A stretch of 36,787 bases of DNA, taken from the NCBI GenBank assembly GCA_026988685.1, contig JALSKU010000202.1, positions 1-36,787 on the forward strand. Reading direction: 5' to 3'. Below the pieces are notes generated by a model. It made no database searches, was not told where the DNA came from, and saw only the letters and a list, made by a program, of their open reading frames with translations. Shown here piece after piece: positions 5,808 to 13,328 of this stretch (within the stretch, counting starts at the first letter, position 1; the number at the start of each line of letters is the position of its first letter). This DNA is from Campylobacterales bacterium (GTDB lineage Bacteria; Campylobacterota; Campylobacteria; Campylobacterales; JALSKU01). Position numbers and translations under genes: made by a program.

Positions 5808-6425
5808 ATGGGTGAGATTAGAGATGCCAATAGGAGCAAAAAGAGTATCATAGTAGCAGCTACTAAGCTTTTTGCTAAAGATGGTTTTGACGGTGTAAGC
5901 GTTGATGCCATAGCAAAAGAGGCTGGGGTAAATAAAGCGATGCTCTACTACTACTATAAAAACAAATCAAAACTTTATGAAGTGGTAGTAGATATGGTTT
6001 TGGAAGATATTTATAAAACCGTGCTAGAAAAAAACTCTCAACATAAAAAACCTATAGATAAACTATACTCTTTTATCGAAACCTTTGCCAAATATGCTAA
6101 AGCCAATCCGCACCTCTCCTTTTTTATGTTAAATGAGTTGGCAAGTGATGGTAAAAAGTTGCCAAGAGATATGTTTTTGGGACTTAGAAAGATATTTGGA
6201 CTGCTAGTGGATATACTAAAAGAGGGAGAAAAAAAAGGGTGTTTTAAAAAAACAAAGCCTATCATAGTCCATTTTATGATAGTGGGTGCTATCAATCTCT
6301 TTATATCCACCAAAAATTTAAGAAAAAGCGTAGAGGATGAACTGGGTGCAGAGGTTTGCAACGAATGTAAGATAGATGAAGTTGCAAGATACTTATATGA
6401 CTACATAACCAAGGGGATTTCATGA
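5808..6425 (+). CDS. TetR/AcrR family regulator
   Basis: LFAKDGFDGVSVDAIAKEAGVNKAMLYYYYKNKSKLY HTH. Confidence 0.93.
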   Translation: MGEIRDANRSKKSIIVAATKLFAKDGFDGVSVDAIAKEAGVNKAMLYYYYKNKSKLYEVVVDMVLEDIYKTVLEKNSQHKKPIDKLYSFIETFAKYAKANPHLSFFMLNELASDGKKLPRDMFLGLRKIFGLLVDILKEGEKKGCFKKTKPIIVHFMIVGAINLFISTKNLRKSVEDELGAEVCNECKIDEVARYLYDYITKGIS

Positions 6426-7699
6426 AATATATAGCTATAATCATTACCGTTTTATCTTTTCAGATAAATTCATTCGCACTTAGCATGACTGACCTGTTTG
6501 AAGCACTGAAAAAACAGCCTGTATCCAAAGTGGATGCACTACAAGTCAGGGAGGCCAATGTAGGTGTAAAAAGTGCAAAAGATGCACTCTATCCTAAGTT
6601 ATATCTAATAGGCTCATACAATCACTATAACAGACCATCAAGCCTAAGACCTGTGCTTCCTACGGAAACCCCTACACTTTTGGCTGAAGACAAACCACTT
6701 CCTTTTAGCAAGGATATCACAAAGGTTGGAGTTGATCTTAATTTTCCTATTTTTGTCAAATCTTTATACACTATTAGAGATAAGGCAAAGCTTATAAAGT
6801 TATCTTCAAAACAAAAAAGCAGACTAAACCTCATCCAAAGAGAGGCTAAGATCTTAGGTGCCAATGCATCTTTGAACTATCTTGAGTATCTAAAGATAGC
6901 ACTAAATGAGAAGAGAAAGTCACTTCTTAAAATGAGGAAAGATATAGTTTTAAAGGTGGCTAACGGTAGAGCGGCTCCTGTGGCGCTAAACAAGATAGAC
7001 CAGAGTCTAAACAGTATAGATATCGCAAAAAACAAGATAGATCTAAGTAAAAATGAGATATCTTCACTTATCGAGACGCTAACCGGCATAAGAGTAGATA
7101 AGAGTATAGAGTTTTATCAGGCAAAAGAGATAAAAAAAGAGAGCATCTTTGCGCTCTTGCCGCTTAAAAATCTGCTAAAAGCCAAAAAAGTGGGACTCAA
7201 AGCTGCAAAAGAGGCGCTTTATCCGGCGCTTTTTTTAAATGCCAACTACTTTAAAAGCTATGCTGATGGCTACAATAACGACAAATCCATAACCACAGGC
7301 TTTGGAACTATAGGAGTTAAACTAGTGATGCCTCTGTATGACAGAAGCAAATATACTCACATCCAAAAAGCAAGAGTAGCGTATGAAAAAGAGAGAGCCA
7401 TATTGGCGAAAACAAAAAATGAACTTCTTGTAAAAGCAAAAGAGTTAGAAAATGATATAAACCTCTTAAAAAGAAGCGAAGAGCTAACCAAAAAAAGCAT
7501 AAAAAATCAAAAAGAGCTTTTAAAAGTTGCAAAAGTAGCTTTTAAAAATGAGCGAATGAGCGAAGAGGAGTATCTAAGATATGAAGATAAACTAAGTTCC
7601 CTAAGAGCAACTTTAGCTCAAGTAAAAGCAAAAAAATGGCAGGACTTAGCCCAGCTTGCCGTAATATACGGAAATGATTTGGAAGGAGTGGTAAGATGA
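6422..7699 (+). CDS. TolC-family outer membrane efflux protein
   Basis: Signal peptide, two ALYP repeats, coiled-coil helices; operon context; ATGA overlap. Confidence 0.85.
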   Translation: MKYIAIIITVLSFQINSFALSMTDLFEALKKQPVSKVDALQVREANVGVKSAKDALYPKLYLIGSYNHYNRPSSLRPVLPTETPTLLAEDKPLPFSKDITKVGVDLNFPIFVKSLYTIRDKAKLIKLSSKQKSRLNLIQREAKILGANASLNYLEYLKIALNEKRKSLLKMRKDIVLKVANGRAAPVALNKIDQSLNSIDIAKNKIDLSKNEISSLIETLTGIRVDKSIEFYQAKEIKKESIFALLPLKNLLKAKKVGLKAAKEALYPALFLNANYFKSYADGYNNDKSITTGFGTIGVKLVMPLYDRSKYTHIQKARVAYEKERAILAKTKNELLVKAKELENDINLLKRSEELTKKSIKNQKELLKVAKVAFKNERMSEEEYLRYEDKLSSLRATLAQVKAKKWQDLAQLAVIYGNDLEGVVR

Positions 7700-8787
7700 A
7701 GTTTTTAAAAGGTTTGATAGTTGTTTTGATAGCGGCAGTTTTGGTAGTCGGCGGGATCAGGTTGGTTAAAAAGAAAAAGGCTGAAGAAGCAAGGATAGAA
7801 GCAGCCAAAACTTATAAAGTAGTGGTTGACTCTATGAAGTTAAAGAGCAAAATATTTAGCCTTTCGTTGCCGTACTTAGCTACCGTAGCAAGTGACAATA
7901 GAGCAGTCATATCGACTAAAGTTGCCGGCAGGATTCTAAAGATAGTTAAAAGCGGGGAAAAAGTTAAAAAGGGAGATATTTTAGTAAAGATTGATGATAG
8001 TGAGCTAAAGAGTAAGCTAGAGGCTTTAAGGTTATCGATAAACTCTATCCGCATCAATCTATCAGCAAAAAAGATAGTTCTAAAAAATGCTCTTTTAACA
8101 CATAAAAGAACAAAAGAGCTTCTTGATGTAAAAGGAGCTTCGATCGAACAGTATCAAAACGAAGAGGACAAGATAACCTTGTTAAAAGCCTCTATTGCGT
8201 CACTTAAAAGCAACATAGCAATAAACAAAGCAAAGATAGATGAGATAAAAAATTTACTCAGTTATACTGTTATAAAGGCTCCGTTTGATGGTGTAGTAAG
8301 CAAAACCAATGCAACTATCTTAGATATGGCGATGCCAGGAAAACCCTTGGCATTTTTACAGGCTCTTAAAGGTAACTATCTTGTAGTAGCACTTCCAGAT
8401 AGCGTAAAGGCTAAAGAGATACTCTATGAGGGTAAGAGTTATCCTCTTATCTCTTTACACTCTACCGTTAATGGACTTGAAAAGTATAAAGTATTGGCAA
8501 AGGTTAAGGAGAGCATAGGAAGCAGGGTCAATGTGAAAGTTAAAACATTTGATGGGGATGGTGTTTGGCTTCCACTAAATGCTCTCCTTCAGATAAACAA
8601 TAAGAGCTATATATTTGTTATAGATAAAGATGTGGCAAAACCTGTCGGCGTAAAACTTTTGGCTGACGGAGAAGAGGGGTATGCTATAGATAAAAAATAT
8701 GAAGGGAAAAAAGTAGTTTTGGCAAAGCCGGATATATTTCTAAAACTTTTGGCAGGAACGAGGATAGAATTAAGAATTAAGAGTTAA
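7696..8787 (+). CDS. RND efflux periplasmic adaptor (MFP)
   Basis: Lipoyl-like halves KVAGRI..VKSGEKVKKGDILVKID and IKAPFDGVV flanking a coiled coil. Confidence 0.9.
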   Translation: MKFLKGLIVVLIAAVLVVGGIRLVKKKKAEEARIEAAKTYKVVVDSMKLKSKIFSLSLPYLATVASDNRAVISTKVAGRILKIVKSGEKVKKGDILVKIDDSELKSKLEALRLSINSIRINLSAKKIVLKNALLTHKRTKELLDVKGASIEQYQNEEDKITLLKASIASLKSNIAINKAKIDEIKNLLSYTVIKAPFDGVVSKTNATILDMAMPGKPLAFLQALKGNYLVVALPDSVKAKEILYEGKSYPLISLHSTVNGLEKYKVLAKVKESIGSRVNVKVKTFDGDGVWLPLNALLQINNKSYIFVIDKDVAKPVGVKLLADGEEGYAIDKKYEGKKVVLAKPDIFLKLLAGTRIELRIKS

Positions 8788-8802
8788 GAATTAAGGAATG
8801 GA

Positions 8803-8895
8803 GATTTAAATTTCTGCAAAACATATGCAGCGGAAGGGTTAAAATCTTTGATTTTGGGGTACCCACCGTGAATCCGTTTTGAAGAAGTTTAAATC
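8803..8895. mobile_element. 93-bp MITE/REP-like palindromic element with 20-bp terminal IRs and flanking GGAATGGA direct repeats
   Basis: GATTTAAATTTCTGCAAAAC (8803-8822) vs GTTTTGAAGAAGTTTAAATC (8876-8895), 18/20 complementary; inner stems GCGG/CCGT, GGGT/ACCC, AAAATC/GATTTT; GGAATGGA at 8795-8802 and 8896-8903. Confidence 0.55.
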
Positions 8896-8936
8896 GGAAT
8901 GGATTTTAAAGTGAAGAATTAAGAGTGGAGGATGGA

Positions 8937-9026
8937 TTGGATAACAATATTATTTATGATAAAAGTTATAAGTTTGCATTGAGAGTTGTAAAGCTTTATC
9001 AATATTTAAAAAATGAACACAAATAG
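8937..9026 (+). pseudogene. Four-helix-bundle protein (23S rRNA IVP / Avd-like family) N-terminal remnant
   Basis: SD GGAGGA (8927-8932), TTG start, (M)DNNIIYDKSYKFALRVVKLYQYLKNEHK*, resembling the family's first helix; in-frame tail SKIKNSKLLILNS* follows the TAG. Confidence 0.7.
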
Positions 9027-9087
9027 TCTAAAATTAAGAACTCAAAACTCTTAATTCTTAACTCTTAATTCTTAATTTCAAAGGATA

Positions 9088-12000
9088 GTGATGTTTGAAT
9101 TTTTCTATAAAAGACCATATTTGCTTTTTAGCACTATAGCTCTTTTCTTTGTGATGGGTGTTATCGGGCTTGTAAAGATGCCTAAAAATCTCTTTCCGGA
9201 TAGCGAATACCCTACTGTTGTAGTTATTACGAAGATCCCGGGAGCTACCGCAAAAGTGGCTGCTAGTACGGTATCTAAGCCTATAGAGGAGGAGATCTCA
9301 AGACTCTCTTTGATAAGAGATATAAGCTCTGTAAATGTTCCTAACTTTTCTATCATAAAGGCAGAATTTGGTTATAAAAAAGGGTTGGAAGCTGCTGCTG
9401 TTGATGTGAGCAATGCACTCTCTATCGCAAAGGCAAAACTACCGCCAAATGCCAATCCGGCAGTTTATACAGTGGGCTCTTTTACCTTACCTGTCGATGT
9501 AGTAGCGCTTAGCCCTAAAAATAAAAATATATCACTTAAAGAGATAAGAAAGATAGCTGATAGTTTTATAAAACCATATCTTTTAAGCGACCATGTTATA
9601 GGTAATGTAGAGGTTTTCGGTGGATATAAAAGTGCTATAAATATCAACATAGACCCTCTTAAAATGAAAAAATACCAGTTTAGCTTTGCTCAGGTTTTTA
9701 ATGTTTTAAGAGGAAGCGAGAGAGATATCCCTATGGGATTTATAAAAGGAAAAAATGGCTTCTTTACACTTACAATATATGGTGAAAAAGATAGAGTAAG
9801 TGAGTTAAAAAGAGTAGCAATAGCCCCAAATATAATGCTAAAAGATATAGCTACTGTTAACTGGAGTGAGCAAAAAAGAACATCAGGATATATCGGAAAC
9901 TCCAAAGAGGCTATAGCTTTGGCGATACAAAGGGCACCAGGGGGTAGCGTATTGGATGTTAGCAATGAAGCAAGGGCACAGATCAAAAAACTTCAAAAGA
10001 TGTATCCAAATATCGACTTTTCTATAAGTGATACCCAAAGAATACTCATAAAAACAGCTAACACAAATATGCTTGAAGCTTTAAGGGATGCTATCATCTA
10101 CACTCTTTTGGTTTTGATGTTTTTTCTTGGCAATTTTAGAGCGATTATCGCTGCAGGTCTTTCTATACCTATGGTATTTTTTGGAACGATGGCAGTTATA
10201 TACCTAAGTGGCGGGGAGTTAAATATAGTCATCTATACAGCTATCATACTTGCGCTTGGAATGCTTGTTGATGATGCGGTTGTTGTTCTTGAAAACATTG
10301 AGAGGCATCTAAGCGGAATGCATCAAGACTTGCAGGTTGCTATAAAGGAGGGAACAAGAGAGGTGCTTTTGCCTATATTTGCCGGAACTGTTGCTACTAT
10401 TGCTATCATGTTTCCCCTTATGTTTGTCGGAGGCTTTCCTCAAAAGATATTTAGGCCTCTTATATCTACTCTTATCATCGCTTTGCTCGTTTCGTACTTT
10501 TTATCCATTACTTTTATACCCAAGCTTTCAACATATTTGTATAAAAACGGAACCCAAAAAACAAAGGTAGAGAAGTGGTTTGAGTGGTTTTACCAAAATA
10601 CACTTGGAAGACTCATAGTGCCTTATGAGGGGATTTTGAAATTTTCCAATGGGAGATTTAAGCCTCTTAGGAGATTTCCTCTTGTTGCATTGGCGATTGT
10701 AATTTTTATCCTATCTTTAAAAAATATTATGCCGTTAATAGGAAAAGATACTATGCCTCCAATGGATACGGGTATCATGAAAGCTCAGATAGCCTTTAGC
10801 ACAAATGATACCGTAGAAGATGCCGAAAAAAGACTAAAACCATTTCTAAAATGGCTAAAAACTCAGAAGAATTTTGTAATGAGTTCCATAGCCTTTGGTA
10901 GTGAGAGTGGAGTATTGTCTCTTGGAAGTGGAAATCTTCCTACTGAAGCTACTATCACTATCAATGCGGTAAATCGTTTCCAAAGAAAAAAATCTATCTG
11001 GCAGATGGAAAACGAGATACGAGATAAATTACACGAATTAAAAGGGATAAAGCGAGCAGATGTATTTGACTTCGGTGCTACGGCGTTATCTTCCATCAAG
11101 GCCCCGCTTGACATAAGAGTAAAATCAGCCACTTTTGATACGCTGCCACAAAAAGCAAAAGAGATACAAAAGGCTATCTCTAAGATAAAGGGGCTAACAA
11201 GCACCTCTATAAGTTGGGATAAAGATTTTAGCGAGATAGAAGTTGTGGTAGATAAAAATAGAGCCTTAAGCTATGGGCTTACACCATTTAGCATAATGGC
11301 TCAAATCCCCATAAAAGGTCAGATCGCTTCACTCAATGCAAATCTAACCTCTATGGATACACAGTTTGTAAGGATCTACCTACACGGCAAGTTTAATGGC
11401 AATATAGAGTCCCTAAAACTTTTACCGCTTCACGCAAAAGGTGGAGATATACCTCTTAGTGCGGTTGCAAAGGTAAGATACAGACTAACTGAAGCTAAGA
11501 TAGAAAGAGATAAGATGCTATACAGCATAGATATAAATGGATATAGGGCAAAAAGAGCTATAACACATCTAACGGATGATGCCAATAAAGCACTAAGCAA
11601 GATAGATAAAACCGGTTATATCGTAACTCAAGAGGGAGATATATCATCGTTAAATGACAGTTTTTACAGGATGATAAAAGCTATAGGCATAGGTATTGTT
11701 GTACTCCTTTTGACTCTAATCTCTATATATCACTCAGTAAGGCTCTCTTTGATCATGATAGTTGTTTTGCCACTTTCGATGATAGGTGCAGCTTGGGCTA
11801 TGCTTATCTTTGACAAGCCAAGCTGTATGCCAAGCCTGGTGGGAATACTGCTGCTTTTTGGTATCATCATCAAAAATGCGGTCTTGCTTGTGGACTTTTT
11901 CCAAGAGTATAGAAAGGAGGGCAACTCTCCATTTGAGAGTGCCTTAAAAAGTGTCAGTGTCAGATTTAGACCTGTCATGATGACTGCTTTTGGAACGATA

Positions 12001-12189
12001 GCAGGTATGATACCTATAGCACTTGAGCAAGCTGTAGGACTAGAGAGGCTCTCACCTTTGGCAGATGTTGCGGTAGGCGGACTAATAGTCGGAACCTTTT
12101 TGACACTGATATATGTGCCAATGTTTGCATATATTTTTGACAAAGAGAAAAAAACAGATAAAATCAAAACAGGAGAAGAAAATGGATGA
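9088..12189 (+). CDS. RND efflux permease (AcrB/AcrD/AcrF family)
   Basis: 1033 aa; ALGMLVDDAVVVLENI, GIIIKNAVLLVDF, RFRPVMMTAF..IAGMIP.AL. Confidence 0.95.
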   Translation: MMFEFFYKRPYLLFSTIALFFVMGVIGLVKMPKNLFPDSEYPTVVVITKIPGATAKVAASTVSKPIEEEISRLSLIRDISSVNVPNFSIIKAEFGYKKGLEAAAVDVSNALSIAKAKLPPNANPAVYTVGSFTLPVDVVALSPKNKNISLKEIRKIADSFIKPYLLSDHVIGNVEVFGGYKSAININIDPLKMKKYQFSFAQVFNVLRGSERDIPMGFIKGKNGFFTLTIYGEKDRVSELKRVAIAPNIMLKDIATVNWSEQKRTSGYIGNSKEAIALAIQRAPGGSVLDVSNEARAQIKKLQKMYPNIDFSISDTQRILIKTANTNMLEALRDAIIYTLLVLMFFLGNFRAIIAAGLSIPMVFFGTMAVIYLSGGELNIVIYTAIILALGMLVDDAVVVLENIERHLSGMHQDLQVAIKEGTREVLLPIFAGTVATIAIMFPLMFVGGFPQKIFRPLISTLIIALLVSYFLSITFIPKLSTYLYKNGTQKTKVEKWFEWFYQNTLGRLIVPYEGILKFSNGRFKPLRRFPLVALAIVIFILSLKNIMPLIGKDTMPPMDTGIMKAQIAFSTNDTVEDAEKRLKPFLKWLKTQKNFVMSSIAFGSESGVLSLGSGNLPTEATITINAVNRFQRKKSIWQMENEIRDKLHELKGIKRADVFDFGATALSSIKAPLDIRVKSATFDTLPQKAKEIQKAISKIKGLTSTSISWDKDFSEIEVVVDKNRALSYGLTPFSIMAQIPIKGQIASLNANLTSMDTQFVRIYLHGKFNGNIESLKLLPLHAKGGDIPLSAVAKVRYRLTEAKIERDKMLYSIDINGYRAKRAITHLTDDANKALSKIDKTGYIVTQEGDISSLNDSFYRMIKAIGIGIVVLLLTLISIYHSVRLSLIMIVVLPLSMIGAAWAMLIFDKPSCMPSLVGILLLFGIIIKNAVLLVDFFQEYRKEGNSPFESALKSVSVRFRPVMMTAFGTIAGMIPIALEQAVGLERLSPLADVAVGGLIVGTFLTLIYVPMFAYIFDKEKKTDKIKTGEENG

Positions 12190-12547
12190 TATGGTAAGAA
12201 ATACCAAAATGAAAGATGTTCCTTCAATGAGGGTGGATATAGAGAAGTTTATAGAGTTATACAATGATGACAAAGCTATACTTTTAGATATTAGATACCC
12301 TTTTGAAACAAAGGTTTGGAGAGTTAGTTTTGCTACTTTGATACCCTATGATGAGCTTCCCGATAGGTTGGATGAATTGCCTAAAGATAAGCTTATAGTC
12401 TGCACATGTCCTGAAGAGTATAGATCAAACATGGCAAAAGAGTATCTAAGATATAAAGGCTATGATGCCAAAAATCTAACAGGTGGATTGCTCGGCTTAA
12501 TGACAAGGCTAAAAGGCGGCAAAGCAAAGGATGTGCATTTGCAATAA
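12182..12547 (+). CDS. Rhodanese-like domain protein
   Basis: LLDIR.P.E, ELPKDKLIVCTC...RS, AKNLTGGL; start chosen at the ATG after SD AGGAG (12171-12175). Confidence 0.85.
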   Translation: MDDMVRNTKMKDVPSMRVDIEKFIELYNDDKAILLDIRYPFETKVWRVSFATLIPYDELPDRLDELPKDKLIVCTCPEEYRSNMAKEYLRYKGYDAKNLTGGLLGLMTRLKGGKAKDVHLQ

Positions 12548-12551
12548 ATAA

Positions 12552-12568
12552 GGGGCTGGTTCAGCCCC
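12552..12568. other. Short GC-rich intergenic hairpin
   Basis: GGGGCTG-GTT-CAGCCCC; no U-tract on the + strand. Confidence 0.45.
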
Positions 12569-12587
12569 AATAAAGGCGGTTTAAGAT

Positions 12588-13328
12588 ATGAATGTGATGG
12601 ATTATATAGAATACTTTTTGATAACCCTTGGAGTATCCTCTTTTTTTGCAATGGGTGGAGTAGGTAGTGCCGTGGCATTGGTGCCTATCTTTGATATGTT
12701 GGGGCTTGGTTTTAATATAGCAAAAACCATTGCCCTTTTTATCAATACTTCCACAACAGTAACAGCAAGTATTATGAATCTAAAAAGAGGTGTGCTTGAT
12801 GCGAGGTTTGCTTTTTCTCTTGTTATTTCCTCTATGATTCTATCGCCACTTGGAGCTTACAGTTCCAAATTTATCAATGTCTCAAGTGTTAAATGGGGCT
12901 TTTTAACTTTCTTGGTTTTTAGTGCTACTATGATGATGTTTTCAAAAAAAGAGGCAAAATTTAAGTATGAAAAAAAGTGGATATTATATCTTATAGGTGC
13001 GATAGTTGGTTTTATATCCGGACTCCTTGGTATCGGCGGCGGAGCACTTGTCATGCCGCTTATGATACTTCTTGGATTTGATGCTAAGAAAATGGCTATA
13101 GCGGTCAGCTTTATGATCCCTTTTTCAACCTTTAGTGCTTTTTTATCATATATCTCATTTGTAAAAATAGACTGGATGCTACTTGTCATAACAGCTATAG
13201 CAGCTATCTTGGGCGGATATATAGGCAATGCAGTTATGCACTTTAAGCTAGAGGCAAAGCATATCAAGAAAATTATAGCAATCTTACTCTACATCTTAGC
13301 TATCAAAATGGGATACTCATTGATTTAA
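12588..13328 (+). CDS. Sulfite exporter TauE/SafE (TSUP) family protein
   Basis: About 8 TM segments; AMGGVGS..LVP and SGLLGIGGGALVMP repeats. Confidence 0.88.
   Translation: MNVMDYIEYFLITLGVSSFFAMGGVGSAVALVPIFDMLGLGFNIAKTIALFINTSTTVTASIMNLKRGVLDARFAFSLVISSMILSPLGAYSSKFINVSSVKWGFLTFLVFSATMMMFSKKEAKFKYEKKWILYLIGAIVGFISGLLGIGGGALVMPLMILLGFDAKKMAIAVSFMIPFSTFSAFLSYISFVKIDWMLLVITAIAAILGGYIGNAVMHFKLEAKHIKKIIAILLYILAIKMGYSLI

Follow-up and report, generated by a model that had tools for sequence, protein, structure and literature searches.

The closest described counterparts of the element reported here are of two kinds, the intervening sequences (IVSs) of 23S rRNA genes that carry an S23p-type open reading frame (ORF) and the heptamer arrays that are dispersed through some bacterial genomes. 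The IVS in helix 45 of Coxiella burnetii is reported to form a 28-bp stem that is cut in mid-stem by RNase III, to have three tandem heptamers just 5' of its S23p ORF, to carry an ORF in decay, one strain having lost 176 bp of it, and to be regarded as selfish and horizontally moved (PMC4990558). Dispersed heptamer arrays are described for Xanthomonas (GGGAATC) and Nostoc (GGGGA(C/T)T) (PMC4692102), for Beggiatoaceae (TAACTGA) (PMC4679880), and for Geobacter metallireducens, which has heptanucleotide families (PMC2700814). We analyzed a stretch of 36,787 nt from a Campylobacterales bacterium (contig JALSKU010000202.1 of assembly GCA_026988685.1; hereafter, the window), in which an element of about 310 nt, bounded by inverted heptamer arrays, separates the genes for a membrane fusion protein (MFP) and a resistance-nodulation-division (RND) transporter. 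To our knowledge, S23p-ORF IVSs are known only from 23S rRNA, and dispersed heptamers are known only as unexplained intergenic features. The element is probably a defunct four-helix-bundle cassette with heptamer arms, into which another repeat is nested and which has the same design as the ORF-bearing IVSs of 23S rRNA.

The element shares with the Coxiella IVS a loop with a PF05635/S23p-type ORF in sense orientation (here a stump), tandem heptamers, and the decay of that ORF. Unlike the Coxiella IVS, it is hosted by the stop/start junction of MFP and RND rather than by a 23S rRNA helix (9, 25, or 45), each of its arms is made of heptamer units from end to end, another repeat lies within it, and RNase III excision, which was shown for Coxiella, would apply here by analogy. 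With the dispersed heptamers, it shares the use of one unit per family in tens to hundreds of arrays per genome. Such arrays, alone or paired in convergent inverted orientation, lie in the spacers of operons; some of them reach into the 3' end of the preceding ORF and stop shortly ahead of a start codon, and their cause is left unexplained in those reports. The element differs from them in that one array pair encloses an S23p-type stump here and intact genes in relatives. The terms S23, four helix, and intervening sequence do not occur in the available portions of PMC4692102, PMC4679880, and PMC2700814, PMC8161180 has nothing on heptamers, and our literature searches, supplements aside, returned no paper linking heptamer arrays with S23p-type genes. 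The element is a variant that combines the S23p IVS and the dispersed heptamer repeat, and its particular value lies in the lineage-specific expansion at gene ends.

The MFP-RND junction was initially compared with those of relatives. In all 11 of the relatives' loci (seven from the same genus and four from other genera), the MFP stop codon lies 1 to 13 nt before the RND ATG, and the Shine-Dalgarno (SD) sequence lies inside or just after the MFP end. Additionally, a contig of metagenome run X6, from another study, joins position 8759 to position 9090 through 38 different letters that form an ordinary MFP tail, stop codon, and SD; this contig shows the allele of a related strain that lacks the insert. 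Within the window, the left heptamer array encodes the final five residues of the MFP together with its stop (8770-8787, LRIKS*), giving an end of ...ELRIKS* with TAA at 8785-8787. When positions 8770 to 9076 (307 nt, with an uncertainty of 2 nt in either direction) were deleted in silico, the MFP end became ...IEFKG*, close to the ...IEIKE* of one relative, and its TAG lay 2 nt before the RND ATG; the RND SD region is similar to the native SD of the relatives. These results demonstrate that the element was inserted into this junction. The original prediction had proposed an intervening insertion of about 310 nt here and had pointed to empty MFP-RND junctions in relatives as its test, and both were found.

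The two ends of the insertion were then examined. The arms are 28 nt long, 100% complementary, and 254 nt apart, compared to the perfect 27-bp inverted repeat originally claimed, and Tandem Repeats Finder reported period-7 arrays at 8766-8795 (4.3 copies) and 9049-9077 (4.1 copies). The remaining details of the prediction held as well: the left arm encodes the MFP end, ELRIKS*, the right arm ends (9077/9078) 2 nt upstream of the RND SD, which is AAAGGA, and the variant unit, GAGTTAA/TTAACTC, occupies mirrored places in the two arms. The mirrored position was considered as compensatory evidence and rejected, since the order of units is identical in other pairs and the match therefore reflects common descent. 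When region 8755-9095 was folded, as had been proposed, the predicted RNA had a 30-bp outer stem (8767-8796 with 9049-9078), a long stem from complementary termini as in IVSs, and the SD and the RND start codon were unpaired. The minimum free energy was -85.1 kcal/mol versus -58.4 +/- 4.7 kcal/mol for shuffled sequences (z, -5.68), and 0 of 100 shuffles were as stable.

The original prediction had also placed a four-helix-bundle gene between the arms, but no intact gene lies there. The frame that resembles a four-helix-bundle gene spans 38 codons (8910-9026) and is the longest on the plus strand of the interior, the longest overall being a 42-codon frame on the minus strand. It matched the Pfam profile PF05635 at positions 2-27 of 106 only, with an E value of 0.056 and 14.1 bits versus the gathering cut-off of 33.8, and is thus a fragment of a former member and not a full-length one; an NCBIfam search of the 38-codon frame gave no match. 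The stump corresponds to residues 4-40 of a 122-amino-acid protein from the same genus (genome G009; 57% identity; E value, 2e-5), the next best genome match having an E value of 0.39 (tblastn). Judged by this likeness, it is the 5' end of a PF05635 gene of which approximately 70% has been deleted, and the segment between the stump and the right arm is probably the deletion scar. A 371-nt contig of run X6 matches 8946-9027 and then diverges from the window, which is compatible with a longer gene. Avd, the accessory protein of diversity-generating retroelements (DGRs), is also of a four-helix-bundle fold family. Unlike a DGR, the genome has no match to RVT_1, no template or variable repeat is evident (pairs of these were not searched for), and the cargo is a stump of 37 codons.

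The rest of the interior is largely occupied by a dispersed hairpin-forming repeat, module M, which the original prediction overlooked. M runs from 8797 to approximately 8925 (about 116 to 125 nt) and splits the left array, the remainder of which lies in a region homologous to the upstream part of intact cassettes (locus L202). The genome gave 28 BLAST matches to M at 80 to 98% identity, 27 of them near full length, and gave no second copy of the stump region. On a second contig of run X6, M is missing and the left array continues directly into the start of the gene. These results demonstrate that M is nested within the element. A few copies of M carry compensating changes in the stem of the hairpin. 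No Rfam family was found for M in the scan of the window or in five loci with M copies or M-core matches, and a search of 40 related genomes gave no full-length M; three of these genomes (G019, G017, and G031) have partial core matches of 30 to 50 nt. One such match, a 50-nt core with 92% identity, stands alone in an intergenic spacer of G019, which belongs to another genus (L044:1501-1550), and has no Rfam family. Within the window, the 93-nt hairpin core of M is bracketed by an 8-nt direct repeat, GGAATGGA (8796-8803 and 8897-8904), and this motif recurs behind the lone array at C200; M may thus have inserted at the end of an array and duplicated its target there, with the composite spreading afterwards. 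A conserved segment of about 80 nt lies ahead of most M copies (C46:17127-17206, C82:5218-5271, and C228:2131-2210; loci L053, L049, and L054) and contains the perfect palindrome GTCAAC AAA GTTGAC and a promoter-like TTGACA-17-CATAGT / TGATAAAAT pointing into M and the downstream gene. This segment is missing from the window copy, and its opposite strand is terminator-like.

We investigated whether intact relatives of the stump occur in a similar setting. PF05635 was searched in 41 related genomes and was found above the cut-off at 22 places, of which 21 were scored and one (L032, with three stops) was left out. Arms were scored as inverted matches of at least 14 between the 200-nt flanks, the control maximum being 13. 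Inverted flanks were found at 13 of the 21 PF05635 loci and at none of 279 control ORFs from the window's own genome, and the best period was 7 at 15 loci and 8 at 3. Each cassette has its own heptamer unit. G009, the same-genus genome, has an intact 122-amino-acid gene with GAATTAA x9 as its left arm, the same unit as in the window element, packed tightly between two genes. When metagenomes were scanned with the G009 protein, 54 loci were obtained, 49 of which had enough flank, and 37 of these 49 were armed, all with period 7. Compared to these cassettes, the window element has the arms and the junction, with the gene present as a stump. The mean distance between arm units was 0.98 for the 48 protein pairs less than 30% divergent versus 2.0 to 2.4 for pairs beyond that limit, and the codivergence of arm unit and protein (Spearman coefficient, 0.26) was reached by 1 of 2,000 permutations; because relatedness was left uncorrected in this comparison, it shows coinheritance and not recognition. 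Taken together, these loci substantiate the link between inverted heptamer arrays at operon junctions and four-helix-bundle genes. Intact cassettes also lie in seemingly equal operon slots across genera with different heptamer units (L020, L028, and L022; L015 and L017; L013 and L014), the neighbors of which, judged by eye, are presumably EmrA-like/EmrB-like, heptose-pathway, and sugar-modifying genes.

The heptamer arrays of the window belong to a family that is expanded in this genome. Three consecutive GARTTAA units occur 35 times here (2 and 4 times for the controls), 9 times in G009 (at one locus), and not at all in 39 other genomes. There are 52 arrays of three or more units, and the catalogue holds 50 clusters, 45 of them with arrays, which are lone, split by M or by the promoter-like segment plus M, or arranged as one of seven convergent pairs. 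This is the pattern of a dispersed heptamer family, in which one unit recurs in many intergenic arrays, singly or as convergent pairs. Six of the seven pairs form noncoding hairpins of about 100 to 130 nt with a common palindromic core; this core reads ATTTATTGGC nnn GCCAATAAAT, and TTTTGGATGC lies outside the palindrome. After the right arm come an SD-like AAAGG and a start codon. By our own count, the sense-oriented array starts from -20 to +23 nt from the upstream stop in 33 of the 41 assessable clusters, and in 20 of these 33, the ORF ends 6, 13, or 20 nt into the array, that is, the TAA of the array itself is the stop. Three further members are missing from relatives: a 234-nt insert at C82 consisting of an array, the promoter-like segment, M, and an array (3 of 3 relatives), the 110-nt hairpin at C51 (3 of 3), and the 35-nt lone array at C200 (5 of 5). 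These results demonstrate that the window element is a member of a multicopy family. The original prediction had named further heptamer-flanked copies in the genome as a test, and approximately 45 array sites and seven inverted pairs were found.

Based on the above-described results, a cassette consisting of a left GARTTAA array, a PF05635 gene, and a right TTAAYTC array would have inserted into the last MFP codons, just 5' of the native RND SD. Approximately 70% of the PF05635 gene would later have been deleted, and the genome-specific 116-nt hairpin repeat M would have landed in the left arm. The MFP would tolerate the insert at the price of a 5-residue substitute tail only; because the unit carries TAA and 7 equals 1 modulo 3, either arm stops any frame within three units. 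The native SD would be kept 2 nt outside the right arm, single-stranded in the predicted fold, while the arms could close a 28- to 30-bp stem that loops out the 254-nt interior and brings the stop and start together. An rnc gene is present in the genome. That the stem forms in vivo and is cleaved by RNase III as in rRNA IVSs, or merely keeps the stop and start close, is something we infer only by analogy. The idea of a mobile, IVS-like element of protein-coding operons with which the analysis began therefore holds in part: the insertion into an operon, the membership in a family, and the armed intact relatives uphold it, but the window copy itself is a relic with a gene stump.

Several results weigh against this reading. 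The stump is the sole trace of PF05635 in this genome, and most arrays are gene-less. The assembly, in 232 contigs, yielded no intact PF05635 gene, and tblastn with the G009 protein finds the stump only; at this degree of fragmentation, short contigs bounded by repeats could be missing. The metagenome scan gave no near-identical intact master copy, the closest match to the stump being 75 to 81% over 63 to 94 nt, and no clear target-site duplication was seen. At least 124 stretches, drawn from many phyla, contain GARTTAA arrays, and among 80 loci fetched from other phyla, 108 ORFs of 70 to 220 amino acids lie no more than 120 nt from an array, only one of which is PF05635. The arrays could thus have come first, with the gene as a lodger between them. 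Finally, in the arms of 59 cassettes, aligned at a permissive threshold that was not calibrated against a control, there were 62 sense-strand versus 68 antisense G:U mismatches (P = 0.66) and 152 transversions; with no sense-strand excess, the conservation of the arms does not point to the RNA level. This symmetry looks like that of DNA-level terminal repeats and gives no evidence for selection on mRNA pairing. Among complete related genomes, G038 and G013 have the units that arm their cassettes also at gene-less sites, with 69, 53, and 25 pattern matches versus 0 in controls. Going by these sequences, either the arrays would be footprints or derivatives of cassettes or the gene would lodge between arrays made otherwise. 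G038 also has two abundant heptamer families, GATTTTG and TGGTCGT, with tens of sites each, and five of its six PF05635 places have other arm units among the arms inspected. GARTTAA arrays were also seen in ribosomal-protein operons (at the S17/L14, S8/L6, and S19/L22 junctions) of metagenome-assembled genomes of a Chloroflexia (L110 to L112) and of Prevotellaceae (L108 and L116), with no PF05635 ORF alongside.

The same observations raise the question of whether the element is instead similar to a miniature inverted-repeat transposable element (MITE), that is, a hairpin that has heptamer arrays as terminal inverted repeats and would be moved by some enzyme, in which the stump is a passenger or the remnant of a gene that settled between preexisting arrays. 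The element does have several features of a MITE, being 307 nt without a long ORF between terminal inverted repeats, with approximately 45 array sites in the genome and a presence/absence polymorphism compared to relatives. The short noncoding loops and common palindromic core of six of the seven convergent pairs, the single PF05635 gene at 80 GARTTAA loci elsewhere, the tens of gene-less sites with cassette heptamers in G038 and G013, and the symmetric mismatch spectrum of the arms are all consistent with this explanation. Nevertheless, we consider it unlikely. The gene is nearly always armed, and arms and protein codiverge, which exceeds what chance lodging would give. No clear target-site duplication was found at the insert, the best-supported boundaries of which allow an ambiguity of TT only, and the other GARTTAA inverted pairs show no consistent flanking direct repeat. 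Neither a Y1_Tnp match over the cut-off nor a reverse transcriptase (RVT_1) was found in the genome, other transposase families not having been searched. A 7-nt direct repeat, AGGATAG (8761-8767 and 9082-9088), does bracket the whole insert; if it were taken as a target duplication, the MFP and RND would be fused in frame, and we therefore treat it as a coincidence between a coding stretch for R-I-E and the SD region.

Another possibility is that the element is a domesticated regulatory RNA hairpin, the stem of which would set the MFP:RND ratio through differential mRNA decay or processing or through translational coupling, as has been reported for Correia and REP-type repeats within operons. 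Consistent with this, the arms are perfect (28 of 28) despite the decayed cargo, a stop codon lies inside the stem with the SD 2 nt outside, and rnc is present. The Correia elements of Neisseria are reported to bind RNase III and to alter the expression of neighboring genes (PMC2649163). They resemble the window element in being small hairpin inverted-repeat insertions near or between genes; they are cotranscribed, can be bound or cut by RNase III, and can supply promoters. Unlike it, they have no tandem heptamers at their ends and are gene-less; there is no sequence relation, and the likeness is one of possible function only. We regard such a role as improbable. The tight, insert-free junctions of the 11 relatives' loci and of one strain indicate that the pump does not need the element, there is no sense-strand G:U bias across the cassettes, and the 97% identity of M to other copies points to recent events and not to prolonged upkeep.

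Replication slippage of native sequence in place, without any mobility and with the inverted layout as a by-product, is highly improbable as the origin of the arrays. Heptamer numbers do vary among strains in the Coxiella IVS (PMC4990558), and slippage has been offered as an explanation of the bacterial heptamer excess (quoted in PMC4692102). However, the unit and the order of units recur at approximately 45 sites, the absence of any heptamer-like seed from the native junctions of relatives at four sites speaks against such an origin, and a gene stump and M came in with the insert as well. A chimeric assembly across repeats in this metagenome-assembled genome is scarcely credible, because even though M and the arrays are present in many copies and M is crossed by none of the Logan contigs, independent contigs from runs X1 to X3 of two studies match MFP-array-M(5') and M(3')-stump-array-RND exactly, and MFP and RND are adjacent in all 11 of the relatives' loci.

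The surroundings of the element were also examined. A gene for an outer-membrane efflux protein (OEP; 6422-7699; E value, 1.6e-28) lies 5' of the MFP gene, with which it shares 4 nt, and the insert therefore interrupts a three-gene operon of outer membrane factor (OMF), MFP, and RND at its second junction only. A promoter and terminator scan of 6000-12600 gave nothing above shuffles and no terminator within the insert. An Rfam scan of 8500-9400 at E values of up to 10 gave three chance-level matches, all below gathering, and no rRNA match. The coordinates of the features are given in Table 1.

Table 1. Features of the MFP-RND junction and gene-less hairpins of the same family (window positions unless a contig is named)
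Feature	Position	Strand	Basis and remarks
MFP (HlyD-type) gene	7696..8787	+	ORF; Pfam HlyD_D23, E 9.9e-9; tail compared with relatives
Whole insertion	8770..9076	+	307 nt; boundaries ambiguous by 2 nt (TT); sequence, relatives, and run X6
Left heptamer array, GARTTAA x4	8767..8795	+	Left arm of inverted repeat, 8768-8795
Module M, dispersed hairpin-forming repeat	8797..8912	+	Inner hairpin 8803-8895; nested in left arm
Inner remainder of left array, GTGAAGAATTAAGAG	8913..8925	+	Adjoins original gene start region
PF05635 four-helix-bundle (S23p/IVS-protein) 5' remnant	8931..9026	+	About 32-37 codons; premature stop
Stump/right-arm junction	9027..9049	+	One sense-type unit, AAATTAAGAA
Right heptamer array, TTAAYTC x4	9050..9078	-	Right arm of inverted repeat, 9050-9077
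RND transporter gene with SD	9080..12189	+	SD AAAGGA, 9080-9085; ATG 9091; Pfam ACR_tran, E 2.7e-166; start aligned with relatives
Gene-less hairpins	C28:732-851, C51:7059-7168, C195:4154-4254, C228:3958-4073, C46:17326-17457, C24:~8780-8850		GARTTAA arms

It is conceivable, although we hold it doubtful, that PF05635 proteins are the trans-acting factor of an unrecognized class of mobile elements, in which the armed cassettes would be autonomous and the gene-less hairpins and lone sense arrays at stop codons would be their derivatives or footprints. If so, this would explain the heptamer repeats of many bacteria (STRR-like, GGGAATC, and TAACTGA), and this genome would record a burst, with approximately 45 GARTTAA sites versus one, the intact cassette, in the same-genus relative and with its sole four-helix-bundle trace inside an arm pair. 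Whether or not this is the case, the hairpin-plus-gene design of IVSs is seen here at the stop/start junction of a protein-coding operon, and in one lineage, the heptamer family has expanded to approximately 45 gene-end sites. The window copy is a relic, and its value is that of a dated intermediate rather than of a working element. Together with its relatives, it provides a system for asking what role PF05635 proteins have, how heptamer arrays are made and moved, and how an operon tolerates an insert of 300 nt between coupled genes.

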